In this document: positions 11,613-53,468 of the stretch, one piece after another
How positions within the stretch are numbered: the stretch's first letter is position 1
Layout of the letters: every line of letters starts with the position of its first letter
Assembly (NCBI GenBank): GCA_965233585.1
Contig: CBDDTI010000746.1
Location: 352,001-416,000 of the forward strand
Direction of reading: 5' to 3'
DNA length: 64,000 nt
From: a bacterium
GTDB taxonomy: Bacteria; SAR324; NAC60-12
The notes under the pieces: generated by a model
The model's database searches: none
Told to the model about the DNA's origin: nothing
What the model saw: only the letters and a program-made list of their open reading frames with translations
Translations under genes and position numbers: made by a program

Positions 11613-11640
11613 CCGAGAGCTAAACATCAAAGACTAAACC

Positions 11641-12687: not shown

Positions 12688-12765
12688 AATCTCAGAGAAC
12701 TTTGCACAAATAGACACACAAGAACTAGAAATCAATTTATTATCACAAAAATTGAGGGAGGTAAT

Positions 12766-13098
12766 ATGTACTTTCTTGTAGAACATAACCGAGACACCAA
12801 GCACACTGAAGTTGGGGAATTTACAGATTTTGATGAGGCAAAGAAGCAATTCTTTAAACGAGAACAACATTATTTGCAACAGGGGCAAGATGAAATGGAA
12901 GTTGTCCTTTTTGAATCAGAGTCACTAGATACTTTAACGGCAACACATAGTCGCTATTTTGTCAATGACTATGAAAAAAATAATGAAAAAAAAGGAGGCA
13001 AAATAGGCGATGCTCTGATAGCAACAGGCGTTGCTTTCATAGCAGTTGGTTTAGTCTCATTAGCCGTTGGAATCCTTACTAAACATTTAGACGAGTAA
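12766..13098 (+). CDS. Hypothetical protein with C-terminal TM helix
   Basis: Strong RBS (GGGAGG) before ATG; hydrophobic C-terminus [22 protein letters not shown]. Confidence 0.6.
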
Positions 13099-13132
13099 AA
13101 TATCTCAAATTTTTTCAAACCGCTCATTGCCG

Positions 13133-13595
13133 ATGGTCTTACCTAACAAACTCAACCTTGCCAATCAAGTTGACCTTGCCAAAGCAGAAGAAAAAATCGG
13201 CAAACAACAGGCAAAAAAGCTCTTTGATTCTGGTGAAATAGACAAGGTAGAAGTTGGCACTTTCAAAGGGTTGGCGTGCATTCACGCTTATTTGTTTGGT
13301 CAAATCTATGACTTTGCAGGCATCATGCGCACCGTCAACCTCAGCAAAGGCGACTTCCGCTTTGCACCTGTCATATATCTCCAACAAGCCTTACAACATA
13401 TTGACCAAATGCCTCAACACACCTTTGACCAAATCATTCAAAAATATGTTGAGATGAACATCGCCCACCCTTTCCGTGAAGGCAACGGACGCACAACACG
13501 CATCTGTCTTGACCTCATGCTTAAAAAACACCTCAAACAAGTCATTGATTGGAACGCCATAGACAAAGACGACTACCTTTCTGCCATGCAACGAA
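13133..13595 (+). pseudogene. fic: Fic-domain adenylyltransferase truncated by IS1
   Basis: HPFREGNGR motif; reading runs into the IS inverted repeat after DYLSAMQR, native C-terminus absent. Confidence 0.8.
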
Positions 13596-13603
13596 GGCAG
13601 TGT

Positions 13604-13984
13604 TCACTTGATATTGGCATGATATTTTTCAAACCTTTTATAGTCAAAGAAGAGTTGTAGAGAGTGTTCCAGCATGTCAAAAGTTTTGGAATGTCGTTTA
13701 GATTTTCTCATCAAGCGAGCTAGGTTATCTCTGATGGAAGAATTAGAAGATTCAATGAGATGAGTGTTGTCCTTGCCTATCTGATGCTTTTGTGGAATTT
13801 GGAGTTGTGCAAATGCCACTTGATAGCATGAGTTGGCATCTGTATAAATCGTTTCAATTCTAGCTCGTTGTGCTTTGACTAGTGCATACAGCTGCTTTGC
13901 TGCTGCTAATCCTTTGCCTATCACAAAGGCAATCACACATTGTTCTTGACGAGAATAGGCTGTCCAAACAGCTACTCTTTGGCT
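13604..13984 (-). CDS. insB: IS1 InsB-like DDE part, reached by -1 frameshift
   Basis: -1 frame reads [53 protein letters not shown]. Confidence 0.8.
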
Positions 13985-20585: not shown

Positions 20586-21132
20586 AATGTTCTAAAACTG
20601 TGTAAATCATAGATTGCTGATAAAATGCGACACATTTTTCGTTACATGCAAAGCATAAGCAATAGAGTTTAAGTTGATGTTGTTCATAAATGAGTTTAAC
20701 CTGTGGGTCTCGGCTTAATGCTCGGAAGGACGAAAGTGTTGCCTCCTGATAGACTGATTCCACCAGATTTTTCAAAGATTCTTCAGACTGAAAGTCAATA
20801 GGAAATTCTAACACAAAAGAAAAGGGTTCTTCTTTCTTTTGAATATGAGTGGTTTTTTGAAAAATAGTGCTGTTTGGTATCCAAAGCAGAGTACCAGATT
20901 GAAGTCTGACCCCCAAATGAGTCAATTTTTGCATCTTGATTTCACCTGCTCCTTCTGGCAACTTGAGCCAATCTCCAAGATGGATTTTCAACACATAGCG
21001 AAGGCAAAATGCCGCCATCATTTCTTTGAACAAAGGCATCAGCAAAAAGACTGCAACTAACAACACGACAAGGAAAAAAACTTCTGTTCCGTCTATCGTC
21101 AGTGTGAAAATGTCAGCAAGTTTAGAAGTCAT
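20566..21132 (-). CDS. Short MscS-like mechanosensitive-channel domain protein
   Basis: N-terminal TM, IHLGDWL...GEI...WIPNS; ATG 21132 overlaps upstream TGA (ATGA). Confidence 0.65.
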   Translation of the reverse strand: MTSKLADIFTLTIDGTEVFFLVVLLVAVFLLMPLFKEMMAAFCLRYVLKIHLGDWLKLPEGAGEIKMQKLTHLGVRLQSGTLLWIPNSTIFQKTTHIQKKEEPFSFVLEFPIDFQSEESLKNLVESVYQEATLSSFRALSRDPQVKLIYEQHQLKLYCLCFACNEKCVAFYQQSMIYTVLEHFEKRNS

Positions 21133-24096: not shown

Positions 24097-25305
24097 GTCA
24101 TTGCTTACCTTGACCCGCAATCTCCCTTTTTTCCAAACGACCCCGTCATTGCGGGCTTGACCCGCAATCTGTGCTTTGTTTGGTGATAGATTCCACATCA
24201 AGTGGGGAATGACAAAGAGAGTTTGCAGACTTGTTTTGTCGTCATTGCTGACCTTGCCCCGCAATCTCATTCTTCTTAAAACACAGGACAAACTTGGGTT
24301 TGTCCCTACGTTGTCATTGCGGGCTTGACCCGCAATCTCACCTTTTTCATTGTGTTGACATTCTTTTTTGAGATTCCGCATCAAGTGCGGAATGACTACG
24401 ACCGTCATTCCTGCGAAAGCAGGAATCCATGCGATGTTGACGATGGATTCCGTGTCAGGTACGGAATGACAGAAAAAAGAGGGGAATTGAAACACCCCGT
24501 TCCTGCGTCATTGCTCACCTTGAACTTAGTCATTGCTCATCTTGTCCGCAATCTCATTTTTTCCCGATTTTACCAGAGCGACTCTTTTTTTGAGATTCCG
24601 TGTTCCCCCGTCATTGCGTGCTTGTGTTTCCGTCATTGCTCACCTTGACCCGCAATCTCTCTTGTTTTCTATCCGCGTCATTGCTTAATTTGAAAACCGT
24701 CATTGCGGGCTTGACCCGCAATCTCACCTTTTTCATTGTGTTGACATTCTTTTTTGAGATTCCGCATCAAGTGCGGAATGACTACGACCGTCATTCCTGC
24801 GAAAGCAGGAATCCATGCGATGTTGACGATGGATTCCGTGTCAGGTACGGAATGACAGAAAAAAGAGGGGAATTGAAACACCCCGTTCCTGCGTCATTGC
24901 TCATTTTGAAAACCGTCATTGCTCACCTTGACCCGCAATCTCTCTTGTTTTCTTCGTTCACTTTTTTTAGAAACGACTCGCTTTTTGAAATTCCGCATCA
25001 AGCACTCAAGTGACAGAAAAAAAGAGAGGGAAATTGAAACACCCCGTTCCCCCGTCATTGCTCACCTTGACCCGCAATCTCTCTTGTTTTCTATCCGCGT
25101 CATTGCGGGACTTGACCCGCAATCTCCCTCGTCTTCTTCCAAACAACTCCTTTTTTTGAGATTCCGCATCAAGTGCGGAATGACTGAGAGGTTTTGTAGG
25201 CGTGTCTTTTTGTCATTGCGGGACCTGACCCGCAATCTCTCTTGTTTTCTATCCGCGTCATTGCTTAATTTGAAAACCGTCATTGCGGGACCTGACCCGC
25301 AATCT
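24097..25305. repeat. Dense cluster (>20 units) of CGTC/GTCA-tagged REP-like palindromes, containing a 205-bp exact direct repeat
   Basis: Units GTCATTGCGGGCTTGACCCGCAATCT, AGATTCCGCATCAAGTGCGGAATGAC, CGTCATTCCTGCGAAAGCAGGAATCC; 24313-24517 = 24699-24903. Confidence 0.9.
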
Positions 25306-25370
25306 CATTTTTTTTCAAACTACCTTCAAACCCGCATCTTTCCTGACTTCCTGATCTTCCTCTTTTTTAC

Positions 25371-25621
25371 AAAAAATCTTCAAAATTCCTTAAAAAACCA
25401 AAAAAATTTCCTCAAATCCTGAGTCTTGACTTGTTTTTTTTTTTTGTACGTGCATAATGCCCGTTTTGGTTTTTCTCAAAAACTCTTATCTTGAAGAGAA
25501 ATCAATTTTTCATTTCAAGAGGGGAGTTTTTCGTGTCACAGCACCCGCAGGGGTGCTGTTGTTTTGTTGATTTTGTAATTTTTCTTCATCTTGTTCAATT
25601 TTGTTTAATAGGTAGGTTTTT
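25371..25621 (+). promoter_or_regulatory. Promoter with T12 tract and two-hairpin 5' leader (copy 1)
   Basis: TTGTTT-16-CATAAT (25431-25458); hairpins 25478-25531 and 25538-25559 followed by a T-rich run; homologous to 36237-36457 and 39457-39600. Confidence 0.6.
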
Positions 25622-28600
25622 ATGCAAAAGCTCATCAATCGTTGTCTTGTTCATTTGGCATCTGTTGTCAAACCTTCTGTTGTCCAGACAGGTGTTTGCC
25701 TGCTGTGCATCACGACTCTCTTTGCTTGCAGTAGTGACGATGGTGGTGCGTCTTCAGGAGCGAACACCCCAGCTGCCATCTCATCAAAGGAAGCAGAAAA
25801 AGAAACAGAAGCACAGGGGGGGCAATGTTTGCAGATTCCCAAAACACAGACGCAAGGCACAGGCAACCTTGCCATCTTCAACTCACTAGATGAAGATGTG
25901 CTGCTGTCGTATTCCAGCAGTCTGAATGCTGATGATGTGATGGCTGTCATTGGTGGCAAGCAAAATGGGGTGAAAGTGGACATTTCAAAACGCATCTCTT
26001 CCACGGTCATGGTGTTTGGATTCAAGATGCCAGCAGTCAAGGACTATCTGAAAGCAGATTGCGATGAGACCAAGATGCCAACAGCTTTTGTGCAAAGTGA
26101 GTTCATTCCAACAGCCGAATCCAGCTTTGTGCTGGAAGCCAGCGAGCTGAAACAAGATTACGGAACATTGCTGGTCAAAAACAATCGTTCTGGATTGGTG
26201 TCTATTTTTCAAGGCAGTTCAAGGAACAAGCAAATCGGAGTGATTCAAGGCAACCAAGCAAACTATCGCATTCAAATCCCCATCGGCTACAAGCAGTTGT
26301 TGTTTTACCTACACAACCCATCAGGAGGCATTGACTTTACAAAACCTGTCTTTTCCAAAAATCTAGTTTTTAACAAAGGAGATGAGAAGTTTGTGTTCAT
26401 TCCCAAAACGACCATCCTCACTGGTGCGAAGATCAAGTTTCTCAATGCCTCTGCTCAAGATGTGATGCTGATGGTGAGAAAGAGCGACCAACCTTTGTCT
26501 AATCTGGAGTGCGGTTGCAAATTCTTTGGCAAGGAATCGGCTAAAGCTGTGATGATTCTGGTGCAAGACAAATATTATGCAGATGATTTCTTCTTTTCTG
26601 TCATCAGTTCAGACACAGGTCAGCCCTTGAAACAAAGTGAAACTTTTCAGTTGAACAAGAACACGAATGTGCAATTTGAATTGAGAGCAGATTTGACTCT
26701 GAAGAAGACAGATTTGGGCAAGGGTCAAGTTGTTGTGCCAAATGAAAAACCCAGCACGCCAAGTGAAGTGAAAACAAGCGAGGTCAAAGCCAGCAGTGTC
26801 AAAGTCAGCTGGTTGCCTTCAGCAGATTCAGATGGTCAAGTGGAAGGTTATGAAGTCTCTTACAAGACAAGTAGCGGGTCATGGACTGGCACACAAACCA
26901 CCACTCAAACCAATTTGATTGTATCAGGACTTCAACCTGAAACCAGCTACACTTTCCGCATTCGTGCCAAAGATGATGAAGATGCTTGGAGTGATTATGC
27001 AGAAAGTGCGAGTGTTAAAACACCAGCCCCTAAAAATCTAGCCCCCAGCAAGCCCAGCACGATTCAAACCAGCAACATCACTGCCTCCAGCATCAAGGTT
27101 TCATGGTCTGCTGCCACCTCTGACGGCAGCATTGCAGGTTATGAAATCTCTTATCAGACAGGTAATGGATTTTGGAAAGGGGCAAGGACGATTACTGGCA
27201 CCACTTACACTTTTTACTCACTGCAGTCTGAAACTAGCTACACTTTCCGTGTTCGTGCCAAAGATGATGAAGATGCTTGGAGTGCTTACAAAGAGAGTTA
27301 CACTGTCAAGACTGCACCTGCCAAACCGTCTTCTCTTGCTGTCTCTGGCAGAACACTCACTTTTGCCACTGCTTCAGGCAAGAGTTATCAATGTAGCAAA
27401 GATGGCGGTACAAATGTCAGTGATTGCAACAGCCCCTTTGCTTTTGGCAACAATGCCATTGCGTCAGGCAAGCTGTGTGTTCGTGTCAAAGCTACTGGTA
27501 ACACTCCTGCATCAGATTGGAGTTGCTACACGCAAGCGATTAATGCTGTCAACCAAGCACCAAGCAAGCCAACTAACTTTACAGCAACAGAAATTAAGAC
27601 TAAAGTTATCAAATTGTCGTGGACAGCTGGCCAAGATTCAGATGGCTCAATCATAGGCTATGAACTCAAATACACCAAGCAAGGACAAGCAAACTACATT
27701 AACCTAAAGCTAGGCAGTGAGACGAATAAAACGCTCACTAATCTTGTTCCCGATACTACTTATGACTTGAAGCTAAGAGCAAAAGATAATAAAAATACCT
27801 TTTCGGATTATACTAGCTTGCAAGTCAAAACGAAGTCAGTAAGAAGCACCAAACCCAAACAAACGGGACAGACTAAAAGCTATGATGCTAGAGGTGCTGA
27901 GGTCAGTGATGGCAGTATTAAAGATGATGGCTACTATAAAAAAGGGGTTGCTCATAACTATTCAAGGGATAATGATATTGTTATCGATAATATTACGGGG
28001 CTGCAATGGCAGGATAATTTGCGTGACGCTGGTCGTAAAAATCAGAATGATGCCTCGATCTATTGCAATAACCTTAGTCTGGGAGGATATAGCGACTGGC
28101 GTCTGCCTCGTAGAAAAGATTTACTCAGTATTATAAGTTACGGTAGGCATCCCGCAGCGGATCCAGTCTTTAAAAATATTAAAAATCGCGGGAATTGGTC
28201 TAGCACTACTGCTTATACAGGTCCATTAAATGAAGAGAATGATTCATGGGTTATTGATTTTGGTGATGGAAGTATCTCTCATAGAAATAAGAGCAGCAAT
28301 AGTTACGATTTTCTCTGCGTGCGTCTTGATATGTCAAGTGTAAGTTATAGTTTTACCAGAAACAACGACATTGTAACAAACACTAAGACTAATCTACAAT
28401 GGCAAGATGATGCAGTTGTTAACAGCAACAAAAAAACTTGGATTGAAGCGATCAACTATTGTGAAAATCTTAATCTAGGTGGATTTAGTGATTGGCGGTT
28501 ACCCAACATTAAAGAGCTAGACACTATCATAGACGGTACTATACGTTATTACTGGAATAACCCCTATTACTACAGTGTTTTTCAATATGGTAGATTAGGA

Positions 28601-28732
28601 TTTTTTTATTCCAGTACTACCACTTACAATTCTAGTGGCAACAGGACTAATACTGCATGGGTTGCTTCAACCAGAGGCAGATACATAAATGGCAAAAAGA
28701 ACATTGGCTATTCTGTGCGTTGTGTCAGGTAG
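25622..28732 (+). CDS. Modular surface lipoprotein: beta-sandwich N-region, FN3 x3, 4-Cys module, 2x DUF1566 (Lcl/CLec-like)
   Basis: Lipobox LFAC (Cys36); FN3 motifs GLQPETSYTFRIRA; TGLQWQ..C..L.LGGYSDWRLP..WSST..CVR twice. Confidence 0.85.
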   Translation: MQKLINRCLVHLASVVKPSVVQTGVCLLCITTLFACSSDDGGASSGANTPAAISSKEAEKETEAQGGQCLQIPKTQTQGTGNLAIFNSLDEDVLLSYSSSLNADDVMAVIGGKQNGVKVDISKRISSTVMVFGFKMPAVKDYLKADCDETKMPTAFVQSEFIPTAESSFVLEASELKQDYGTLLVKNNRSGLVSIFQGSSRNKQIGVIQGNQANYRIQIPIGYKQLLFYLHNPSGGIDFTKPVFSKNLVFNKGDEKFVFIPKTTILTGAKIKFLNASAQDVMLMVRKSDQPLSNLECGCKFFGKESAKAVMILVQDKYYADDFFFSVISSDTGQPLKQSETFQLNKNTNVQFELRADLTLKKTDLGKGQVVVPNEKPSTPSEVKTSEVKASSVKVSWLPSADSDGQVEGYEVSYKTSSGSWTGTQTTTQTNLIVSGLQPETSYTFRIRAKDDEDAWSDYAESASVKTPAPKNLAPSKPSTIQTSNITASSIKVSWSAATSDGSIAGYEISYQTGNGFWKGARTITGTTYTFYSLQSETSYTFRVRAKDDEDAWSAYKESYTVKTAPAKPSSLAVSGRTLTFATASGKSYQCSKDGGTNVSDCNSPFAFGNNAIASGKLCVRVKATGNTPASDWSCYTQAINAVNQAPSKPTNFTATEIKTKVIKLSWTAGQDSDGSIIGYELKYTKQGQANYINLKLGSETNKTLTNLVPDTTYDLKLRAKDNKNTFSDYTSLQVKTKSVRSTKPKQTGQTKSYDARGAEVSDGSIKDDGYYKKGVAHNYSRDNDIVIDNITGLQWQDNLRDAGRKNQNDASIYCNNLSLGGYSDWRLPRRKDLLSIISYGRHPAADPVFKNIKNRGNWSSTTAYTGPLNEENDSWVIDFGDGSISHRNKSSNSYDFLCVRLDMSSVSYSFTRNNDIVTNTKTNLQWQDDAVVNSNKKTWIEAINYCENLNLGGFSDWRLPNIKELDTIIDGTIRYYWNNPYYYSVFQYGRLGFFYSSTTTYNSSGNRTNTAWVASTRGRYINGKKNIGYSVRCVR

Positions 28733-28777
28733 GTTGATGTGGAGTTAAAAGGAGTGTTTGGAGTATAATTTTGTCCC

Positions 28778-28801
28778 CAGCAAGTGTTTTCATACTTGCT
28801 G
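28778..28801 (+). terminator. Hairpin downstream of the DUF1566 lipoprotein
   Basis: CAGCAAGT-GTTTTCAT-ACTTGCTG, 8-bp perfect stem about 45 nt after the stop. Confidence 0.45.
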
Positions 28802-28814
28802 TCAAAAGTCATCA

Positions 28815-29159
28815 GTCATTGCTGACCTTGAGTGAGCAATCTCACTTGTCTTTTTCCCAACAACTCTTGTTTTTGAGATTCTGAATCAAGTTCAGAATGA
28901 CGAAAGGAGTTTGATCTTTTCCTCATTCCCCTGTCATGGCTCACTTTGACCCGCAATCTCATTCTTCTTTGTTGAGATTCCGTATCAAGTGCGGAATGAC
29001 AAAGAGAGGTACGGAATGACGAGAGAACGTTTGAGATTGCGGGTCAAGCCCGCAATGACGGAAAGACTGCTGGAGATTCCGCATCAAGTGCGGAATGACT
29101 GGGGGAGACACGGAATGACGAGAGGACGTTTGAGATTCTGCATCAAGTGCGGAATGACG
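28815..29159. repeat. REP-like palindrome cluster (same family as 24097-25305)
   Basis: Multiple GAGATTCCGCATCAAGTGCGGAATGAC and GAGATTGCGGGTCAAGCCCGCAATGAC units in both orientations. Confidence 0.9.
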
Positions 29160-29345
29160 AAAGGACTGTCATTTAATTTTATAGACTTGGCAGGAACAGG
29201 CAAGAGGAAGATTAAAGGAAAATTGAACGTAGGTTGATGATGTACAAAGAGAGCCTTTAGTCAATTTGCTTGTTTTTCTTTTTTTGTGTTATCCTACAAA
29301 ATTCTGTTCGTTCGTTTTTGATTCATTTTTTAGTATAAGGAAATT

Positions 29346-30509
29346 ATGGCAAGTTCTTTGTTTACTTCTGAAAGTGTGACGGAGGGTCACCCTGATAAAA
29401 TCTGTGACAAGATTTCAGACTCTGTTCTTGATGCGATGTTTAAGCAAGACCCTCATAGTCGTGTGGCTTGTGAAACCTTTGTGACAACAGGTCTGGTCTT
29501 AGTCGGTGGAGAAGTCAGTACAAAAGCATACGTTGATGTGCAAGGGATTGCACGTCAGACTGTGCAAGAGATTGGTTATACAGACTCTTCAATGGGTTTT
29601 GACTCTAAAACTTGTGGCGTCATTGTAACTTTAGATGAGCAGTCTCCAGACATTGCACAAGGTGTGGACTCCCAAGAACAACAAGGTAAAGAGCAAGGGG
29701 CTGGAGACCAAGGTTTGATGTTTGGCTTTGCCTGTGAAGAGACCGAAACCTTGATGCCTTTGCCTATTTTGTTGTCTCATCAGTTGACACAAAATTTAAC
29801 AAACCTCCGCAAAAGTGGTGAGCTTCCCTACCTCAGACCTGATGGCAAAGCACAAGTGACAGTGCGATATGTTGATGGAAAACCTGTTGAAGTGACAGCA
29901 ATCGTTGTCAGTACGCAACATGCCGAAGATGTGTCTCAGGAGCAGATTCGTCAAGATTTGATAGAAAAACTTGCCAAAGCTACCATTCCCAGCAATTTGC
30001 TTTCTTCCAATGTTGTCTATCATATCAATCCGACTGGAAAGTTTGTGATTGGTGGACCTCATGGAGATGCAGGATTGACAGGTCGCAAAATCATTGTGGA
30101 CACTTACGGGGGCATGGGCAGGCACGGAGGCGGTGCATTTTCAGGCAAAGACCCTTCTAAAGTAGACCGTTCTGCCGCATACAATGCACGTTATATTGCC
30201 AAAAACGTTGTTGCCGCAAAATTGGCGTCTCGTTGTGAAGTCCAGCTTGCTTATGCCATTGGCGTTGCTGAACCTGTTTCTGTCTCAGTGGATACATTTG
30301 GCACAGGTCAGGTTGATGAAACCAAGATTGCACAGCTCATCAGAGACCACTTTGCTCTCAAACCCAAAGAAATCATTGAGTCCCTAGATTTGTTGCGTCC
30401 CATTTATGCACAAACTGCGGCGTACGGGCATTTTGGCAGAGAACTTCCAGAATTTAGCTGGGAGAAAACGGACAAAGCAGACATTTTAAGAAGCCAAGCA
30501 GGTCTATAA
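29346..30509 (+). CDS. metK: S-adenosylmethionine synthase
   Basis: [28 protein letters not shown]. Confidence 0.97.
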
Positions 30510-31361
30510 TTGCTCAACAGTCAAACGGAGATTTACGGAGTACTAGGCTATCCTGTCAAGCATTCCTTGTCTCCTTCCTTCCATAATTCCGCATTGAGGC
30601 ATCTAGGAATCAATGCTGTCTATCTTGCTTTTGAAGTTGCTCCTTCAAATCTTTCAGATGCGATTAACGGAATCCAAAGTTTAGGGATTCAAGGTTGCAA
30701 TCTGACTGTTCCCCACAAAACAAAAGTCATTCCCCTGCTTGACCAAATCAGCCCAGAAGCCCAAATCATTGGAGCAGTCAATACTGTGAGTCTTGACAAA
30801 AACAGGCATCTGACAGGATATAACACCGATGGCATTGGCTTTCTTCGTTCTCTAAACGCTTTGAATTGCAAGGTTCTCAAGCAAAAGGTGTTGATTTTGG
30901 GTGCAGGAGGTTCAACACGTGCGATTGCTTATACTTTGGCAAAGTCTATGGTCTCACAAATCACGATTGTGAATCGCACTGTTCAAAAAGCGGAGAACCT
31001 TGCAGAAGAATTTGCACCTTTGTTCCCAGAGGTTTTTTTTGAAGGAAAAAAAATTGAGGACTTGCAAGGTCAATCTTTTGATTTAGTGGTCAATACCACA
31101 ACAGTTGGAATGGACGGACAATCGTCCATCTTGGATTTAAAACAGCTTTCTCAAGTTGGATCAGTGGTTGACATCATTTACACTCCTGCAAAAACTCCAT
31201 TGATGAAACAAGCGGAACGTTTGAAAATTCCTACCATCAACGGAATTGGCATGTTGCTCCATCAAGGGGCGAAATCCTTTGAGATTTGGACAAAGCAATC
31301 TGCACCGATTGACATCATGCAAAATGCTTTGCTTCAACAACTTTCTCAAAGAAAAATATGA
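30510..31361 (+). CDS. aroE: Shikimate dehydrogenase
   Basis: HSLSP, NLTVPHK, GAVNT, NTDG, GAGGS, MLLHQG. Confidence 0.95.
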   Translation: MLNSQTEIYGVLGYPVKHSLSPSFHNSALRHLGINAVYLAFEVAPSNLSDAINGIQSLGIQGCNLTVPHKTKVIPLLDQISPEAQIIGAVNTVSLDKNRHLTGYNTDGIGFLRSLNALNCKVLKQKVLILGAGGSTRAIAYTLAKSMVSQITIVNRTVQKAENLAEEFAPLFPEVFFEGKKIEDLQGQSFDLVVNTTTVGMDGQSSILDLKQLSQVGSVVDIIYTPAKTPLMKQAERLKIPTINGIGMLLHQGAKSFEIWTKQSAPIDIMQNALLQQLSQRKI

Positions 31362-31466
31362 TGGAAAACTTGAAGAGAATCAAGATGGAAGAATGCCTCA
31401 AAAATTGTCTATGGTTCATTAAAGCAAACGTTGAGAGCAAACTTTGAATGAACCTAGACAAAAAAA

Positions 31467-32897
31467 TTAATTTGAGAAAAGAGGTTTCACCTCAGAATGC
31501 AGATTGGCTCGTGCAGGTCTGACTTGAATGGAGTCAATTACGCCACAATCTGTCCGCATGTCTGAAATGAGAACGACTTCATCATCTGGAGTGATATGAC
31601 TGATTTTGTGCAAGATACGGAATGCACGCATCAGTGTTTCTTCATGGTCTGAACTAAATTCAATGAAGATGGGTCTGATATTCCGCATGATAGTCATCAG
31701 TTGATGAGTCTTTCTGTTGTTTGTAAAAGCGAAAGTGTCTTGTTTAGAGCGGCAATTTGAGACAAACCTTGCAGTTGTGCCAAATTGAGTCAAGATAATT
31801 AGCCCCTTGCAACCGTAATCTTCAGCAAATCTCACTGCAGTTTGAGCCAGACGTTGCTTTCTGCTTGTCACTTCAAGACCTTTCCCAAGCTCTAAACTTT
31901 CATGAACTTCTGTGGTTTTGGCAATTCTTGAAAGATACTTGACACATTGTTCAGGGTATTTGCCAACGGCAGTTTCACCTGAAAGCATAATCGCATCTAC
32001 TTCCTCATAAATGGCATTTGCCACGTCGCTGACTTCTGCACGTGTGGGCATTGGGTTCTCAATCATAGACTCAAGCAAATGTGTTGCAACGATGCTGCGC
32101 TTGCCTTTTTTAGCACACTTGGTGGCAATTTGTCTCTGGATATATGGAAGTTGTTCAGGGGGAATTTCAATTCCCAAATCACCCCTCGCAATCATCACTC
32201 CATCAGCAATATCAATGATTTCATCAACGTTGCCCAGACCCTCCACATTCTCAATCTTGGCATACACTTGGCATCTTCTGACATGCGGACCAAGAATTGC
32301 CCTTGCACGATCAATGACTTGAGCAGAACGGACGAATGACAACGCAAAAAAATCAAAATCGTGTTCTCTCCCAAATTTCAGGTCTAAAACATCTTGTTCT
32401 GTGATAGAGTCAAGGTTGACTTTGATACCGGGTAAGTTGACGTGTCTGTATCCCTTAACGAAGCCACCATGTTCTACCTGACAAGTGATGGTCTGGTCTT
32501 GTTGGCTCATGCTTAAAATTTTCAGATGAATCAGTCCATTGTCCACCAGAATTGTATTGTCAACAGCAACATCGTGGATTAAATCGGAGTAGTCAATAAA
32601 CAGGGTATTCGGGGCAGGTTCTTTGAGAGTGATGACGATTTCTTGACCCTCTTTCAGGTCCATAGAATTTGAACCTGTTCGGATTTCAGGTCCTTTGGTA
32701 TCAAGCAATAGTCCAAGAGGAGTGGAAAGCTCTTCATTGACTGCTTTGATGGTATCAATCACTTTGCGATGGTCATCATGGGTGCCGTGAGACATATTGA
32801 TTCTAGCAATGCTCATACCTGCATCATGCAATTTGGTCAGCATTTCTGGAGAAGAGCTTGCAGGACCAATGGTGCAAATAATTTTTGTATCTTGCAT
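31467..32897 (-). CDS. pyk: Pyruvate kinase
   Basis: TKIICTIGPAS, DTKGPEIRT, AKIEN, MIARGDLG, MLSGETAVG. Confidence 0.95.
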   Translation of the reverse strand: MQDTKIICTIGPASSSPEMLTKLHDAGMSIARINMSHGTHDDHRKVIDTIKAVNEELSTPLGLLLDTKGPEIRTGSNSMDLKEGQEIVITLKEPAPNTLFIDYSDLIHDVAVDNTILVDNGLIHLKILSMSQQDQTITCQVEHGGFVKGYRHVNLPGIKVNLDSITEQDVLDLKFGREHDFDFFALSFVRSAQVIDRARAILGPHVRRCQVYAKIENVEGLGNVDEIIDIADGVMIARGDLGIEIPPEQLPYIQRQIATKCAKKGKRSIVATHLLESMIENPMPTRAEVSDVANAIYEEVDAIMLSGETAVGKYPEQCVKYLSRIAKTTEVHESLELGKGLEVTSRKQRLAQTAVRFAEDYGCKGLIILTQFGTTARFVSNCRSKQDTFAFTNNRKTHQLMTIMRNIRPIFIEFSSDHEETLMRAFRILHKISHITPDDEVVLISDMRTDCGVIDSIQVRPARANLHSEVKPLFSN

Positions 32898-32938
32898 AAA
32901 TTCACCTTTTAAAATAGAAGATTTGGAAAGCAGTTATT

Positions 32939-33793
32939 ATGATAGTAAATCAAAAATTAAAAAAGAGTCTCTTTTTCAAGATGTTTTCATGTGGGTTGAT
33001 TTTCTATTCGTTTTCAGGGTATGCAGAGACGCTTTCGTTGAAGGATCTTAGGCAGATTGCTAACCAAACCAACTGGGTTTATCAACAGTATTTGCAAAAG
33101 CAGATGCAACTTTATATCAGAAATCAGCTAGACTTGCCACAACGTTTGTGCCAGCGAGATGACCAGACCTTTGGTTGCACAACGTATCAAAAACAAAAAA
33201 ATACATGGTCTATTCAACTCACACTAAAAGAAGCCTTGAGAGTGAAAGCATTAGATTTTGGTCAACTTTGGTTGTTGCGTCAGGGCAATGGACAGAGAAA
33301 ATTGGTAGCCAAAAACCAAAGTAATCAATCTCTTGAGTTTTCTTTTGATGGTCCAAGTCTTTCAGGTTGGCAAGTCAAAAATAAGCAAAGAACTTTGACC
33401 AACAGACAACTTGAAGCCTTGAAGCAAGATGCTGCATTCATTTACAGAGACCAACTCAAACGGGCGATGATTCAGTACCAAAATCAACAAATTGCATACC
33501 CGACAGACCCTTGTGACGCACGTATGCTGCGTCTGGGGTGTGTGTCATTTTCACGCTTTCAACATCATACTCAAATGACCATCGTGCTTTCAAAAGAGAA
33601 AAAGCAAACATTTCTTGGATTCCACAGTCTTTTATACAAACGTCAAAATGACGGAAGTGGTATGATTCAATTCCGTGACTCACAGCAATTCAATGAGTCT
33701 CAACAATCTCAAATTTTTATTCCTATTGTGAACGACCAAATGCAATCTTTGCATACTTTGGTGAATCAAACATTTGACTCATGGGACGACTAA
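32939..33793 (+). CDS. Secreted hypothetical protein made of two internal repeats
   Basis: Signal peptide (GYA|ET); two C-x8-C units ending GC. Confidence 0.6.
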   Translation: MIVNQKLKKSLFFKMFSCGLIFYSFSGYAETLSLKDLRQIANQTNWVYQQYLQKQMQLYIRNQLDLPQRLCQRDDQTFGCTTYQKQKNTWSIQLTLKEALRVKALDFGQLWLLRQGNGQRKLVAKNQSNQSLEFSFDGPSLSGWQVKNKQRTLTNRQLEALKQDAAFIYRDQLKRAMIQYQNQQIAYPTDPCDARMLRLGCVSFSRFQHHTQMTIVLSKEKKQTFLGFHSLLYKRQNDGSGMIQFRDSQQFNESQQSQIFIPIVNDQMQSLHTLVNQTFDSWDD

Positions 33794-34275
33794 CAGATTT
33801 ACTTGTTGCCAGAGGCATCATTAAAGATGCTGAAAGCGACCAAACCCCAGCCATTGCAGAAGAAGATATTTTAAGACTGACTGATGTCTTTGAAGAAGAG
33901 AATATCTCCCAACAAATCAAAGAAACTTTTCAAGAACAACAACAAACTCCTTTAGGTAGGAATAAACGTCTACTTTTTGGAAAACTTCCCTCCATTGGAG
34001 AATTTTTTATCCCCAAATCCATGAACGGACGACTGCTGGACTGCCCTGATGTTTTGTTTGTAGAAATGCAAAATGCCACGCCAACACTCAAAGCCAAAGC
34101 CTATGCCTTTGATGGTGATGAGCTTAGTTTTATCTACTATGACTCTCAAAGCAAGATGTTACAAACAGGGACGTTTACAGAATATCCAACTGACGCTTAT
34201 GGTGCCAAAATGGGACGCATTGGCGTTTATCACAAGACACTCATCTGGATTTCTAAAGTTTCTGATTTGATTTGA
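33781..34275 (+). CDS. Hypothetical protein
   Basis: 164 aa ORF overlapping the upstream stop; no recognised motif. Confidence 0.55.
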   Translation: MGRLTDLLVARGIIKDAESDQTPAIAEEDILRLTDVFEEENISQQIKETFQEQQQTPLGRNKRLLFGKLPSIGEFFIPKSMNGRLLDCPDVLFVEMQNATPTLKAKAYAFDGDELSFIYYDSQSKMLQTGTFTEYPTDAYGAKMGRIGVYHKTLIWISKVSDLI

Positions 34276-34491
34276 AAGTGTTTGATTGAATTTGAAAAAT
34301 CCTAGTTTCTAAAAAACACAAAACTTTTTTGGGTTGAGAGATGAAAATAGGACAAAACAAAACTACTTGAGCAGAGAAAGAACCCCCAAGACTGCTCTTA
34401 TGCACAAGGCATCATTCATTTTTTGAAGAAAGTGAAAAAGTTCTGTGTAGGAAAATAGTTGTCAAAAGTGAAGGAAAGCCAGCAAACCTCC

Positions 34492-34612
34492 CGTCATTCC
34501 GTGCCTCTCTTAGTCATTCCGCACTTGATGCGGAATCTCAAAGACAAGAGAGAGATTGCGGGTCAAGGTGAGCAATGATGGAGTAGGGACAGACACGTTG
34601 GTCTGTCGCTAC
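34492..34612. repeat. REP-like cluster incl. a GTAG-type REP (34583-34612)
   Basis: GTCATTCCGCACTTGATGCGGAATCT, GAGATTGCGGGTCAAGG; GTAGGGACAGAC-ACGTTG-GTCTGTCGCTAC. Confidence 0.85.
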
Positions 34613-34616
34613 AAAA

Positions 34617-36236
34617 CTACCTCCCAAACTTGATTAAAAATATGTCATCGCTTCCTTGATTGGTCTCTCCACCAAAATTTCCTGCAGAGAATCCTGCCAC
34701 GTAAACATTGCCTGCTGAATCCACACTTACTCCTCGTCCTCTATCATTTGTGCTAGTGCCAAGTAGTCTTGACCTCTGTTTGACACCTGAACTGTCATAC
34801 TTGATTAAAAACATGTCGTCACTTCCTGAATGGGTGTGTCCATCAAAAGCTCCTGCAAAGAATCCTGTCACGTAAACATTGCCTGATGAATCTACACTCA
34901 CTCCTTGTCCTCTATCAAAATTGCTAGTTCCAACCAACTTTGACCACTGCTTGACGCCTGAAGTATCATACTTCACTAAAAACATGTCTTCTTTTCCTGA
35001 ATTGGTCTTTCCATCAAAAGCTCCTTCAGAATATCCTATCACGTAGGCATTGCCTGAAGCATCCACACTCACTCCTTGTCCTCTATCATCACTGCTAGTG
35101 CCAAGCAATTTAGACCACTGCTTCGCTCCTGAAGTGTCATACTTGATTAAAAACATGTCCTCATTTCCTGAATTGGTCTCTCCACCAAAATTTCCTTCAG
35201 AGTATCCTGTCACGTAAGCATTGCCTGCTGAATCCACACTCACTCCCTCTCCTGTATCATTACCGCTAGTGCCGAGCAACTTAGACCACTGCCTGTTGCC
35301 TGAAGCATCATACTTGATTAAAAACATGTCCCTACCTCCTGAATTGGTCTTTCCATCAAAATTTCCCGCAGAATCTCCAGTCACATAGACATTGCCTGCT
35401 GAATCCACACTCACTCCAAATCCTTGATCAGTACTGCTAGTGCCAAGCAGCTGAGACCACTGCTTGTTGCCTGAAGTATCATACTTGATTAAAAACATGT
35501 CCCTACCTCCTTGATTGGTCTGTCCATCAAAATTTCCTGCAAGCGATCCTGTCACATAGACATTGTCTGATGAATCCACACTCACTCCACTTCCAAAATC
35601 AAAATTGCTAGTGCCAAGCAATTTAGACCACTGCTTGGCACCTGAAACATCATACTTGATTAAAAACAAGTCAGCATTTCCTTGATTGGTCTTTCCATCA
35701 AAATTTCCTTGAGAGAATCCTGTCACGTAAACATTGCCTTTAGAATCCACACTCACTCTACTTCCAAAATCAAGCCTGCTAGTGCCAAACAGACGAGACC
35801 ATTGTTTAGCCAAGTGTTCAGCAATGGCTTGGTTGTAGCAACTCCAATCAGAAGCAGGCGTATTACCTGATGCTTTGACACGAACGCAGAGCTTGCCTGA
35901 TGCAACGGCATCGTCTCCAAAAGCAAAAGGGCTGTTGCAATTAGTTGCAGTTGTTCCGCCATCTTTGGAACATTCGTAACTTTTGCCTGACTCTTCAGTA
36001 AAAGTGAATGTTCTGGCTGACACTGACAATCTAGTTGATGGTTTTGGTGGCTTTGGTGAGACAGAGGCAGTGTTTTCATCTGATGGACTACGTTTGTCAG
36101 TGCAGGCAACAAGGACACTGAAACCAAGCAGGATTGAACATTTCTTCAAAGAAGAAGATTTAAGAAACGATGCAAAAGCATCAGTGCAGGAAACAAGTGC
36201 TTTGATAAATACTTTGATTGTACGACATGCAAACAT
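34617..36236 (-). CDS. Surface lipoprotein: 4-Cys module + 7 SBBP-type beta-propeller repeats
   Basis: ATG 36236 follows GGAGTCAATCAA (as in the Kelch gene); lipobox LVAC (Cys45); seven 57-aa/171-bp repeats VSVDS.GN.YVTG. Confidence 0.85.
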   Translation of the reverse strand: MFACRTIKVFIKALVSCTDAFASFLKSSSLKKCSILLGFSVLVACTDKRSPSDENTASVSPKPPKPSTRLSVSARTFTFTEESGKSYECSKDGGTTATNCNSPFAFGDDAVASGKLCVRVKASGNTPASDWSCYNQAIAEHLAKQWSRLFGTSRLDFGSRVSVDSKGNVYVTGFSQGNFDGKTNQGNADLFLIKYDVSGAKQWSKLLGTSNFDFGSGVSVDSSDNVYVTGSLAGNFDGQTNQGGRDMFLIKYDTSGNKQWSQLLGTSSTDQGFGVSVDSAGNVYVTGDSAGNFDGKTNSGGRDMFLIKYDASGNRQWSKLLGTSGNDTGEGVSVDSAGNAYVTGYSEGNFGGETNSGNEDMFLIKYDTSGAKQWSKLLGTSSDDRGQGVSVDASGNAYVIGYSEGAFDGKTNSGKEDMFLVKYDTSGVKQWSKLVGTSNFDRGQGVSVDSSGNVYVTGFFAGAFDGHTHSGSDDMFLIKYDSSGVKQRSRLLGTSTNDRGRGVSVDSAGNVYVAGFSAGNFGGETNQGSDDIFLIKFGR

Positions 36237-36457
36237 TTGATTGACTCCATTTAGAGGTTGGACAAAAAGACAACACCCAACGGGTGCTTTCGTGGGAACA
36301 ACTCTTGGCTTGAAAAAAATCATCTGATTTTCAGGGGAAAGAGTTGAATAAAAAAACAAAGCCTATACTATGCAAGTACAAAAAAAAAATACAAGCCACG
36401 ACTTAGAATTTTAAGGGAATTTTTTGGTTTTTAAGGAATTTTGAAGATTTTTCAAAA
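36237..36457 (-). promoter_or_regulatory. Promoter with T10 tract and two-hairpin 5' leader (copy 2)
   Basis: Reverse complement AAAAATCTTCAAAATTCCTTAAAAACCAAAAAATT..CTTGTA-T10-GTACTTGCATAGT aligns with 25371-25458; hairpins 36299-36346 and 36272-36288. Confidence 0.6.
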
Positions 36458-36467
36458 ATCTCTCTTG

Positions 36468-36675
36468 GTCATTCCGCACTTGATGCGGAATCTCAAAAAC
36501 AAGAGTGAGATTGCGGGTCAAGCCCGCAATGACAGTTTTCAAAGTGAGCCATGACGAAAAGGCAAGCCATGAGGTCACAACGTAGGGACAAACCAAAGTT
36601 TGTCCTGTGTTTGAAGAAAAACAAAAGAGATTGCGGGTCAAGCCCGCAATGACATTTTTCAAGGTGAACAATGAC
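36468..36675. repeat. REP-like cluster incl. a GTAG-type REP (36582-36605)
   Basis: GTCATTCCGCACTTGATGCGGAATCT, 2x GAGATTGCGGGTCAAGCCCGCAATGAC, GTAGGGACAAAC-CAAA-GTTTGTCC. Confidence 0.85.
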
Positions 36676-36753
36676 GAAAGAACGAAGTGTTTCAATTTCT
36701 CTCCTTTGAAAGGGTGCTTGTTCAGGTCAAACAGTGTGGTTTTTCCAGAATAA

Positions 36754-39456
36754 TCAAGGTTCAAATGCCCAGACATCGTTTTGACCATCTCCAACATATC
36801 CCCCTAGCACCCAGACTTGATTATTGAGCATCACACTTGCATGACCTGAACGTCCAGACCAACGAACCTGACCTACTGGGATTTTGTGTTCTGTCCAATT
36901 TACACCATCAGAAGAACTCCAAACATCGTTTCTGCGGTTCCCGTCATATCCTCCTAGCACCCAGATTCTGTTGTTAAACACTAAACTTGCATGATCCTCA
37001 CGTCCAGACCAACGAGTTTGACCTGCTGGAATCTTGTGTTCTTTCCAAGTGACCCCATCAGAAGAACTCCAAACATCGTTTTTGTGGTATCCACCATCTG
37101 TGCTATATCCTCCTAGCACCCAGATTCTGTTGTTAAACACCAAACTTGCATGATCCTTCCTTGCAGACCAGCTTGCATCTGTGGCTTTTGTCCAATGTGT
37201 TCCATCTTGGGAACTCCAAACATCGTTTTTGTGTTCGTCATTTTTATCATATCCCCCCAGTACCCAGATTTTGCCATTGAACGTCACGCTTGCATGCTCC
37301 TCCCTTGCAGACCAACGAGTGCTGCCTAATGGGATTTTGTGTTCTTGCCAATTTTTCCCATCTGCCGAACTCCAGACATCATTTTGATAATAAGGAAAGC
37401 CATTACCTCCGCCCATGACCCAGATTTTGTTATTGAACACGACACTTGTGTGATTATAACGTCTTGCCCAACGTGTTTGACCTGCTGGAATCTTGTGTTC
37501 TTGCCAATTTTTTCCATCTGCCGAACTCCAGACGTCGTTTGTGCGGCTTCCAGCAATTCCTCCGAGCACCCAGATTTTTTGACTGAACGCTAAACTTGTA
37601 TGATTCCAACGTGCCGCCCAGAGATTCTTGCCTGCTGGAACTTTGTGTTCTTGCCAATTTTCTCCATCTGCGGAACTCCAGACATCATTTTTTAAGCGGA
37701 TGGAACTTTCATTTCCGCCTATGACCCAGATTTTGTTATCAAACACAACGGTTGTATGATCATTACGCCCAGACCAACGAGTATTGTCTGACGGGATTCG
37801 GTGTTCTGTCCAGTTCACGCCATCTGGAGAACTCCAGACACCGTTTGTGTAGGCTCCACTATATCCCCCTATGACCCAGATTTTTTTGTCAAACACAACG
37901 GTTGTATGACGATAACGAAGAGACCAACGAGTCCTGCCCGGAATCCGATGTTCTGTCCAATTCACACCATCTTGGGAACTCCAGACATCGTTTTTGAGGC
38001 TTCCGTCAACTCCGCCCAATACCCAGATTTTGTTATCAAACACAACGCTTGTATGATCCTCACGCCCAGACCAATCTGCTGAATCAGTCTCTTTTGTCCA
38101 ACTGACTCCATCTGAAGAACTCCAGACATCATTTTTGTATTCGTCGTTTTCATCAACTCCTCCCAATACCCAGATTTTTTTGTCTTTGACAACACTTGTA
38201 TGGCTATGACGAACAGACCAGCCTGCTGAATTTGTGACTTGCGTCCAACTGACTCCATCTGAAGAACTCCAGACATCATTTTTGTATTCGTCGTTTTCAT
38301 CAACTCCTCCCAATACCCAGATTTTGCTATCAAATACAACGCTTGTATGATTGTCTCTTGCAGACCAACGAGTGCTGCCTGATGGAATTTTGTGTTCTGT
38401 CCAAGTGACGCCATCTGCGGAACTCCAGACGTCGTTTGTGCGTTTTCCATCAGTCCCCCCCAATACCCAGATTTTGCCATTGAACGTTACACTTGTATGT
38501 TCCTCCCTTGCCGCCCAACGATGCCTGTCTTTTGCCTTCCAAGTAAATCTGGAAGTGTCAATAGATGGGGTGGGAGAAGATGGCTTGTCAGAAGGTTTTG
38601 GTTTTGGTTCAGAATTGTCAGGAGATGGCTTGTCAGAAGGTTTTGGTTTTGGTTCAGAATTGGAATTGGAAGATTGAGAGATGAGGACTTCGTCAAAGTG
38701 ATTAACAATAGTAGAGTGATTGAAGCTGTCAAAGAGAAGCCCCGCAGTCTGCCCCCAAGAATTACCTTGAGCATTGAAATTCACTTGGTCAGTGCTTTCT
38801 TCACAAAGTAATTGGCTATTGACAGATTTCTTGACTTTTTTGGCAGAAAAATCAAATTCCATTTGAAACCTCACCCACTTCCCAGCAGACACTTGACTTG
38901 TTTCTCCTCCCTTGCAAACGACAACAAGTTGACCACTACCTTGACGAGCAATGCCAAGATGTCCTGCCTCCCCTGCTTGGTTCTTTAACCCGATGCCTCC
39001 AAGATAGTCATTGCCATTTGCTTTCATAAACTTCATATTTGCCGAAATGGTGGTTTTTTGTGGAAAATCATTGGCAAAGTCTTTGCGGATTGAAGCAACC
39101 CGACCAGACTTTCCAGCCACTCTTAAATAACGATTCCCTTCAGATTCTTCTACCCGCTGCTGTGCTGTTCCCAAACCATTATAGATGACCTTGTAGCCTT
39201 CAGGCAGTGTGTTGACACTCACAGATTCAAAATCTTGGCTATAAATGGTCTCATTATTGGAAGAAGGCGTTGGGTCAGGATTGTCAGGAGATTGATTGTT
39301 AGAAGTCTCGTCGTCTCCCGCACAAGCAACGAGAACCGTGAGACACAGCAAGAGTGAACCTTTTTTAAAAAAAGAAGGTTTCAAGAAAAATCTAAAATTC
39401 CTGACAAAAACCACAAGTTCTCGGGAAAGAGAATTGTTTGTATTCAATGTAAACAT
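36754..39456 (-). CDS. Surface lipoprotein: ConA/jelly-roll-like domain, PKPS linker, 12 Kelch-like repeats
   Basis: Lipobox LVAC (Cys45); 12x W..R..H.S.VF..KIWVLGG...NDVWSS.DG..W. Confidence 0.85.
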   Translation of the reverse strand: MFTLNTNNSLSRELVVFVRNFRFFLKPSFFKKGSLLLCLTVLVACAGDDETSNNQSPDNPDPTPSSNNETIYSQDFESVSVNTLPEGYKVIYNGLGTAQQRVEESEGNRYLRVAGKSGRVASIRKDFANDFPQKTTISANMKFMKANGNDYLGGIGLKNQAGEAGHLGIARQGSGQLVVVCKGGETSQVSAGKWVRFQMEFDFSAKKVKKSVNSQLLCEESTDQVNFNAQGNSWGQTAGLLFDSFNHSTIVNHFDEVLISQSSNSNSEPKPKPSDKPSPDNSEPKPKPSDKPSSPTPSIDTSRFTWKAKDRHRWAAREEHTSVTFNGKIWVLGGTDGKRTNDVWSSADGVTWTEHKIPSGSTRWSARDNHTSVVFDSKIWVLGGVDENDEYKNDVWSSSDGVSWTQVTNSAGWSVRHSHTSVVKDKKIWVLGGVDENDEYKNDVWSSSDGVSWTKETDSADWSGREDHTSVVFDNKIWVLGGVDGSLKNDVWSSQDGVNWTEHRIPGRTRWSLRYRHTTVVFDKKIWVIGGYSGAYTNGVWSSPDGVNWTEHRIPSDNTRWSGRNDHTTVVFDNKIWVIGGNESSIRLKNDVWSSADGENWQEHKVPAGKNLWAARWNHTSLAFSQKIWVLGGIAGSRTNDVWSSADGKNWQEHKIPAGQTRWARRYNHTSVVFNNKIWVMGGGNGFPYYQNDVWSSADGKNWQEHKIPLGSTRWSAREEHASVTFNGKIWVLGGYDKNDEHKNDVWSSQDGTHWTKATDASWSARKDHASLVFNNRIWVLGGYSTDGGYHKNDVWSSSDGVTWKEHKIPAGQTRWSGREDHASLVFNNRIWVLGGYDGNRRNDVWSSSDGVNWTEHKIPVGQVRWSGRSGHASVMLNNQVWVLGGYVGDGQNDVWAFEP

Positions 39457-39600
39457 TTGATTGACTCATTGAAAGATTACAAAAAACAACACCTCCAATG
39501 GATGCTGCAGTGGCAAAAACTCTTATCTTAAAATAAATTTATATTTTAAAGACAATGACCCATGCTAACCACTTACAAAAAGAAAGGCAAGCGAATGCTT
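39457..39600 (-). promoter_or_regulatory. Promoter and 5' leader (copy 3)
   Basis: TTGCCT-17-TAGCAT on minus strand; bulged hairpin 39487-39507 + T6; GAGTCAATCAAATGTTT shared with copy 2. Confidence 0.55.
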
Positions 39601-39709
39601 GTAAATTTTTATAAAAATTCTGCAAAACAGTTTGACGGCGGATTGAAGCCAAAAAAAGATACTTGAAAGGGGGGCGAACAATCAAAAGACAAGCCCGCGA
39701 CCTCTCTTA

Positions 39710-39775
39710 GTCATTCCCTGCTTGATGCAGAATGACAGAGAGTGTTTGAGATTCCGCATCAGGCACTCAAATGAC
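39710..39775. repeat. Degenerate inverted REP-like pair
   Basis: GTCATTCCCTGCTTGATGCAGAATGAC ... GAGATTCCGCATCAGGCACTCAAATGAC. Confidence 0.7.
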
Positions 39776-51773: not shown

Positions 51774-51856
51774 AATAAAATTATTTCCTTCAAATATCCT
51801 TCACTTAGTTTGATTGAAACTTCAATAAACTCTGTTCCTAAGAGTGAGCTTTGACA

Positions 51857-53388: not shown

Positions 53389-53468
53389 CCTCTCTCATTC
53401 TTTTTTGAATTTTTATAAAAATAGTTGTTCCTCACCACCCTCAATCATAAATCATACGAAGGTCAGTC

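Follow-up and report, generated by a model that had tools for sequence, protein, structure and literature searches.

How a bacterium might exchange the binding domains of its surface lipoproteins is the question raised by a 64-kb stretch of DNA (the window) from an uncultured, probably coral-associated SAR324 bacterium. The window carries three large lipoprotein genes with unrelated binding domains, or heads, and five clusters of repetitive extragenic palindromic (REP) sequences. The original prediction, made from the window alone, was that a fixed expression and export chassis receives swappable heads, with the repeats acting as recombination or insertion sites. The three genes are part of a larger set of modular surface lipoproteins, specific to this lineage, in which a few stalk modules are joined to different heads; the REP arrays do not delimit these heads. 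Our preferred reading, to which we assign a probability of roughly 0.6, is that the modular repertoire is reshuffled by internal homology, with slippage of a poly-T run tuning each gene.

A modular family and the exchange of its heads

The assembly totals 12 Mb, with the window on contig C746. Among the loci listed, MetK has its best named match in a SAR324 bacterium, at 75%, and the 79 others reach 67% at most. Six repeat-bearing contigs, 2.96 Mb in total with a coding cover of 0.76–0.85, look bacterial, and the remaining 9.05 Mb, mostly of low coding cover, served as a non-bacterial comparison set. The bacterial genome is 92% complete, which bears on the gene absences given below, and counts of gene neighbourhoods rest on our own open reading frame (ORF) calls (2506 genes).

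A profile of the three window leaders detected 17 strong copies on the bacterial contigs, each preceding a gene of one family. These 17 genes are dispersed and have a common promoter, leader and long signal peptide. With B for the base domain, F for FN3, C for the Cys module, J or N for jelly-roll-like domains, S for SBBP, K for Kelch and L for Lcl_C, the window genes read BFFCFLL, CS7 and NK12, and other members include FCS7, BFFFFK6, BFFCJK6J, BFFCJS7, CS4 and BFFCF followed by a DUF5122-type propeller (41 of 59 rows were used to compare heads, architectures and the shared trailer). Of the heads, ten are SBBP, including two that lie past an insertion sequence; five are Kelch, and the DUF5122-type and Lcl_C heads occur once each. 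Heads of the SBBP, Kelch and Lcl_C kinds are all found behind the same N-terminus, and those of the first two kinds recur on different chassis at 67–88% DNA identity. The idea of a fixed chassis with swappable heads is therefore supported, as 17 genes with the same leader combine modules in varied orders. The heads predicted for the window are all present (two Lcl_C, equivalent to DUF1566, seven SBBP, and Kelch), the leader and long signal peptide are homologous in all three genes, and the first two have a Cys module in common (80% over 201 nt); only the lipobox pattern proposed for all three, K[PS]S...[LV]AC, does not hold, the first gene reading L-F-A-C.

The base domain had no match in the genomes of 30 relatives and eight among 1.84 billion representatives, four of them from other organisms (P0132–P0135). 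P0132 and P0133 are base-domain fragments of about 50% identity with a similar long signal peptide, located on one 45.7-kb ENA contig, which indicates that a related organism has the family. AlphaFold gave no usable model of its fold (pLDDT, the predicted confidence score, 34.5), and Atlas leads were all under 0.9. The Cys module was modelled as an FN3-like sandwich (pLDDT 82) whose best structural match (Z 8.0, root-mean-square deviation 2.4 over 74 residues) stands in a long tie of FN3 domains. It occurs at 31 places in this genome and in none of 87 other genomes of the class.

To locate the joins, we compared mosaic blocks, defined as segments of at least 90% identity between family loci (90–99% seen). 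Of the 112 block ends, 74 are coding in both genes compared, 28 fall within a leader or trailer and 10 within REPs; the adjacent arrays make up a 15% share of locus length. Among 64 distinct coding ends, FN3 domains held 21 (10.5 expected) and linkers 15 (5.6 expected).

The best-resolved swap is that of the first window gene. Its homology to the SBBP genes ends with the Cys module, at about 27541; from the stop codon onwards, it again has an 80-base trailer and the first REP unit in common with three SBBP genes. The swap thus ends, on its 3′ side, at the stop codon, and the nearest REP is 83 nt away. Residues 741–1036 gave a synonymous-codon z of −5.2, compared with −0.07 for the chassis and a first percentile of −4.35 for controls, and the TA dinucleotide value of the head (0.096) is at the 99th percentile. 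It was the context-aware codon score that singled out this head; a simpler plain score did not. Lcl_C is confined to this gene within the genome, and the best outside relatives of the head are 35–50% identical. The DUF1566 head thus looks recently captured; most simply, incoming DNA took the place of an SBBP head, both ends of the replacement lying outside REPs. Genes for RecA and ComEC are present in the genome.

A second recent head exchange was noted between C295:232458-233632 and C745:226338-227512, a 1175-bp block of 98% identity with an insertion sequence at the start of both copies and the Cys module at the end; beyond it, one copy has a Kelch head and the other an SBBP head.

On the preferred reading, RecA-type recombination of the ordinary kind, or gene conversion, would generate new module combinations wherever genes have internal modules in common, with FN3 domains, linkers, the Cys module and the 3′ trailer as anchors, and foreign DNA such as the DUF1566 head would occasionally be captured between them. 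From the domain types, our guess is that the proteins serve in adhesion to, or recognition of, the coral host.

A poly-T run in the putative promoter

Alignment of the leaders revealed CTTG, a run of T8–T12 and GTAC[GT]TGCATA[AG]T in 16 of the 17 family genes. The motif has 22 copies on the bacterial contigs and none on the 9.05 Mb of other contigs. Six copies stand outside the 17-member family, and five of these precede proteins with lipobox-like starts, as judged by eye. The six are at C747:368019, C747:820226, C745:128650, C747:28671, C747:680909 and C746:459778; the genes that follow include three 1200-aa lipoproteins, and the two that were scanned both contain DUF7151. The motif was found in none of 44 family-level genomes, and two metagenome matches were discarded as chance matches.

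Long homopolymer runs are concentrated in this motif. The bacterial contigs contain 605 A/T runs of length 8, 43 of length 9 and 25 of length 10 or more; 16 of these 25 are in the full motif and one more in a partial copy, and all seven runs of length 12 lie in the full motif. A run of T8 or longer is found upstream of 15/17 family genes, compared with 92/2489 others. Between identical flanks, run lengths of 10, 11, 12 and 12 were observed.

Upstream regions of single-copy genes have a spacing peak at TTG-N17-TANNNT. In that register the spacer is 18 bases long in 12/22 motif copies, 17 in three and 16 or fewer in seven. Because 18 is the commonest length and 17 the preferred one, a slip of one base would bring a gene into the favoured spacing or take it out. 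The Kelch gene of the window has an interrupted copy, TTGCCT-17-TAGCAT. We therefore describe the run as a candidate slipped-strand promoter switch of the Mycoplasma Vlp type: the poly-T run between the putative −35 and −10 boxes would slip, and the spacer would move across a window of 16–18 bases. That such slippage tunes or switches each gene independently is a view towards which the sequences incline us, by a modest measure.

The leader downstream of the run holds two conserved hairpins. Four of the ten pairs of the second hairpin have two-sided changes, and the whole leader structure has 13 two-sided-change cells, a count reached in 0 of 500 shuffles (the rows are related). Between the second hairpin, which is terminator-like, and the start codon lies a U-rich tail; this hairpin may attenuate the message or may stabilise it.

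A second lipoprotein family has runs of G7–G9 in its signal sequence, which makes slippage-based control more plausible in this organism and is not independent proof of it. Isolated runs of G13 and G14 (C295:21866 and C729:57424) are further slippage candidates; an ORF of 2199 aa that begins like a lipoprotein gene lies directly downstream of the former. A G7 run in the first window gene, just 5′ of the base domain, is in frame there (25816-25822) and one base out of frame in a paralogue (L012:3424-3430, C747:469423); it was not accepted as a switch, there being 75 such runs genome-wide.

Several results weigh against the preferred reading. On the promoter side, a strict sigma-70 scan returned no promoter at 25300-25640, and the commonest class of motif has an imperfect −10 box (CATAAT at 16, or TAATGC at 18). 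Twelve of the 22 copies agree in total length, which no other copy exceeds; such dominance of one length would also be expected of a fixed structural T-tract, or of homopolymers under-called in the assembly. The motif copies are moreover paralogues, and counts of them are not independent. On the side of recombination, Cys modules were not enriched for block ends (5 observed, 5.2 expected). Four of the 17 family genes are broken, which fits decay: two by an insertion sequence (L002, L003), one lacking a signal peptide and one frameshifted. Finally, the locus was seen in five sequencing runs, no RNA run being among those listed, and four of these, from three samples, were compared; no swap or tract-length variant was found among the contig pieces listed. 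Among these, long pieces of X1, X2 and X4 had no differences over the leader of the Kelch gene, the metK block or the junction of Cys module, FN3 and Lcl, nor had short pieces of X5, from a different study, spanning 27366-28116. Joints in these contigs were set aside, as paralogous modules can account for them. The comparison used contigs, which drop rare variants, from near-identical populations.

REP arrays and the alternative explanations

All five palindrome clusters announced for the window were found (Table 1). The claim that they adjoin the three lipoprotein genes and never housekeeping genes alone is correct within the window, with the qualification that the housekeeping genes metK–aroE–pyk adjoin arrays 2 and 3 as well; genome-wide, 40 of 132 arrays longer than 60 bp sit between two genes that are not multi-copy. 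A pattern match at 53466 was rejected as a REP, as it falls in the start of an ABC-ATPase gene.

Strict units number 592 on the 2.96 Mb of bacterial contigs and 42 on the 9.05 Mb of others, and hence are not due to chance. They form 201 clusters, 113 of which contain at least two units. The base preceding GTC is C in 227/592 units and T in 202/592. Four of the six commonest units have an 8-bp stem beginning with AT and a loop of 4–5 bases, and the other two a 6-base loop or an interrupted stem. The unpaired tail is CTC in the majority of units and CCA in 53/592, and a few GTAG-type units coexist with the CGTC type. In SAR324 relatives the CGTC pattern has at least one match in 29 of 31 genomes (320 in G005, 191 in G015), whereas the reversed pattern, used as control, gave 0–2. 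Spacers within arrays (median 38 nt) match a spacer of another array at 85% identity or more in 235/331 cases. The arrays are mosaics, members of the known CGTC-1/2 class with a layout like that of the Neisseria intergenic mosaic elements (NIMEs). Array 1 contains a recent duplication (24313-24547 and 24699-24933, 97% identity, 386-base spacing), indicating that arrays grow by duplication.

A REP unit adjoins 17/17 genes of the leader family, compared with 233/2489 other genes. The predicted enrichment beside lipoproteins with the same leader was thus found, but it is not particular to them: when the other genes are divided, a unit adjoins 99 of 235 with at least three paralogues compared with 121 of 2130 single-copy genes, and the leader family is touched by only 22 of the 113 multi-unit clusters. 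Further REP-rich families are the second lipoprotein family, CCDC90-like coiled-coil proteins (15/21), a nuclease-like family without a Pfam match (19/20), which we take to be PD-(D/E)XK-like, and insertion-sequence genes (25/47), presumably IS1-like. An even spread of the repeats, which would have told against the original prediction, is accordingly not seen. They concentrate beside multi-copy genes, and the association is with such genes and not with surface proteins as such. Forty of 79 insA-like genes are within 500 bp of a REP cluster, and the element may prefer such regions. Tandem rows of coiled-coil nuclease-like and CCDC90-like genes, with a co-oriented REP array between each, were seen at L071 (C746:88540-93393), L070, L072 and L073.

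Orientation of the arrays follows that of the neighbouring multi-copy gene in 43/46 cases upstream and 50/60 downstream, and in 23/27 cases with an opposite-strand single-copy gene on the other side of the array; beside single-copy genes it is near random (16/26 and 23/40). Co-orientation shows that the arrays move with the genes, cause and passenger not being separable by it. The alternative that survives best builds on this pattern: as in NIME-type exchange, flanking direct-oriented arrays would let RecA copy, loop out or replace whole genes, spreading several unrelated families round the chromosome, with head shuffling a separate process. This possibility, about which we are doubtful, is compatible with the preferred reading, in which the arrays, mosaics of the NIME-like kind, are carried along when genes are duplicated and may supply outer homology for whole-gene copying. 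Doubly bracketed genes of four unrelated families have co-oriented arrays in 8/8, 7/7, 8/8 and 6/7 cases. Among the ends of recent non-insertion-sequence duplications genome-wide, 37/166 touch an array and 93/166 are coding, which leaves room for arrays as outer homology, and one 2470-bp duplicate (95% identity) has its start within an array in each of the two copies, with an array edge at its end in one of them. The recurrent spacers fit as well, and the same idea has been argued for Neisseria in the passages of PMC1797815 on these elements. Passive co-duplication with fast array turnover, however, predicts the same patterns. Nor can insertion sites be reconstructed, as synteny with relatives is lost upstream (metK–aroE is conserved in 27/29 of their loci, the upstream neighbour is not), and no variant was present among the contig pieces listed.

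Joined together, these elements would make a three-layer, pathogen-style system of surface variation, independently evolved in coral-associated SAR324: shuffled and captured heads, a poly-T switch of at least 22 genes, and direct-oriented REP arrays as RecA substrates for whole genes. We put this forward as a speculation that is probably too broad.

Neutral proliferation is an unlikely explanation. On this view, weak selection in a genome restricted to a host would let REP arrays, insertion sequences and paralogues accumulate together. The T run would be a plain structural element of a single strong promoter that was duplicated along with the genes, and the mosaics would be by-products. The crowding of arrays around coiled-coil, nuclease-like and insertion-sequence genes agrees with it, as do the broken family members and the single dominant motif length. 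Yet only nine A/T runs of 10 or more lie outside the full motif, set against the many of 8 and 9; long runs persist before several different lipoprotein families; the signal sequence of a second family has G8–G9 runs; 13 of the 17 large family genes retain open frames; and the leader hairpin covaries.

Enzymes that might mobilise heads at REPs were sought, as the original prediction had proposed. RAYT transposases (PF01797) had no match in the genome, a control being positive in 6/14 genomes, and the IS110 profiles PF01548 and PF02371 had none either. The sole GIY-YIG match on the bacterial contigs among the matches listed is a UvrC-sized frame, kilobases from any array; three tyrosine recombinase genes are 4.7–26 kb from any array and one resolvase 16.6 kb. 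The REP-rich nuclease-like family was rejected as mobiliser, being present as single copies in 4/30 relatives and absent from several REP-bearing ones. What we observe is not an integron-like or recombinase-driven cassette system. The weakest account, that a fixed chassis receives its heads at the REP units, with a dedicated enzyme as the probable agent, is very improbable and largely refuted: heads are clearly exchanged and an array touches every family gene, but the arrays lie outside leader and trailer, few block ends fall in them, the Cys module and the stop codon mark the two ends of the best-resolved swap, the arrays bracket non-lipoprotein families too, and no candidate enzyme adjoins them.

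Table 1. Features of the window bearing on the lipoprotein family
Feature	Position	Strand	Remarks
REP array 1	24097..25304	+	CGTC type; 20 strict units
Promoter-like motif	25430..25458	+	T12 run (25434-25445) in putative −35/−10 spacer; from leader alignment
Two conserved leader hairpins	25478..25559	+	Second (25538-25559) terminator-like, covaries across paralogues
Lipoprotein gene 1	25622..28732	+	1036 aa; signal peptide (Cys36), base domain, two FN3, Cys module, FN3, two Lcl_C (DUF1566)
Base domain	25817..26731	+	Orphan, ~300 aa; in 10/17 family loci; almost no outside relatives
Cys module	27317..27541	+	75 aa, four cysteines, FN3-like; precedes head in most family members
Foreign-looking head	27542..28732	+	FN3 and two Lcl_C; from codon use; sole Lcl_C gene of the genome
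3′ trailer	28733..28814	+	Common to SBBP-headed paralogues; begins at stop codon
REP array 2	28815..29158		7 strict units
REP array 3	34492..34612	−	1 strict CGTC-type unit, partial units, one GTAG-type palindrome
Lipoprotein gene 2	34617..36236	−	~539 aa; signal peptide, Cys module (35823-36047), seven SBBP repeats
Promoter-like motif	36367..36395	−	T10 run (A10 at 36380-36389 on +); from leader alignment
REP array 4	36468..36675	−	3 strict units and partial ones; between Kelch and SBBP genes
Lipoprotein gene 3	36754..39456	−	900 aa; signal peptide, lectin- or carbohydrate-binding-module-like domain (lead only), Pro-rich linker, 12 Kelch repeats
Divergent promoter copy of Kelch gene	39562..39591	−	Interrupted T run, fixed 17-base spacer, not slippery
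Degenerate REP pair	39710..39775		Upstream of Kelch gene

The start of the SBBP gene is most likely the ATG at 36236. Elsewhere in the window, a 938-aa ORF without a Pfam match adjoins array 1 (21129-23945, minus strand), a type I restriction–modification methylase lies with RhuM and Fic genes (10149-13660), and an N6/N4 methylase with a TaqI-like endonuclease (51851-53388) is located between two MalK-type ATPase genes. Rfam matched one tRNA in the window and nothing more.

Relation to known systems

Phase-variable, shuffled surface repertoires are mostly known from vertebrate pathogens under antibody pressure. Searches of open-access text gave no report of phase variation in SAR324 and none of such a symbiont lipoprotein family, and among the matches listed for SAR324 and coral there was no report of this system. 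What is new here, at the level of sequence, is the poly-T promoter run in 16 of 17 leaders and a modular repertoire with one traceable head capture. If the three-layer speculation is true, this would be the first contingency-locus repertoire for the phylum, together with a NIME-like arrangement outside Neisseria. The layout known from those pathogens, in a SAR324 bacterium whose assembly also contains coral DNA, would suggest close, variable contact with a host, or phage pressure. The arrays also offer a non-Neisseria case for asking if REPs are a driver of gene exchange or a mere consequence. The name phase variation calls for high-rate reversible switching, and short tracts arise by chance, as set out in the relevant part of a review (PMC11868660).

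The repeats themselves are of a described kind. CGTC-1 and CGTC-2 REPs are defined by tag, stem, loop and tail, and the sections of Di Nocera et al. (2013, PMC3733652) devoted to them mention that no transposase was found. The present units agree in the tag (CGTC or TGTC, unpaired), the stem (8 bp, beginning with AT), the loop (4–5 bases) and the short tail; a few GTAG-type units accompany them, and no associated transposase was found. They differ in clustering, called rare in those sections and here seen as two or more units in 113/201 clusters, and in a commonest tail other than CCA.

In Neisseria, arrays of NIMEs containing dRS3 repeats lie beside variable surface genes and are proposed to promote exchange, and the passages concerned state that NIMEs had been seen only in that genus (Bentley et al., 2007, PMC1797815). 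Both have short inverted repeats strung into long mosaic arrays, recurring spacers and a position beside surface genes. Unlike the NIMEs described there, the arrays here also bracket multi-copy families other than surface proteins, their neighbours are dispersed paralogues and not alleles of one locus, and no phage or IS110-type recombinase was found. The dRS3 consensus, ATTCCC-N8-GGGAAT, is absent from all 40 commonest units, in which only an ATTCC/GGAAT or ATTGC/GCAAT core is common.

For the promoter, the nearest parallel is the Vlp lipoprotein multigene family of Mycoplasma hyorhinis, in which, according to the portion of a review that treats it, every gene carries in its promoter a homopolymer run able to switch transcription (PMC10502178). 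A run of this sort stands in the promoter region of 16/17 genes here (T8–T12). In contrast to Vlp as described there, the run here is poly-T on the sense strand and not poly-A, the proteins are large and multidomain with exchangeable heads, the organism is a diderm marine bacterium, and the run is a candidate switch. In Helicobacter pylori, the length of an intergenic T run tunes the promoter of the adhesin gene sabA; that tract is placed adjacent to −35 in the section concerned, whereas the run here is apparently between −35 and −10 (PMC4081817). For the heads, mafB and fhaB of Neisseria provide alternative C-termini joined at shared internal sequence (PMC1797815, in its account of these loci). 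The joins here are of the same kind; unlike the loci in that account, there is no row of silent downstream cassettes, and each head is in a gene with its own leader. The SAR324 repertoire is a candidate blend of Vlp-like promoter switching, a sabA-like T-tract and homology-driven exchange of C-termini.

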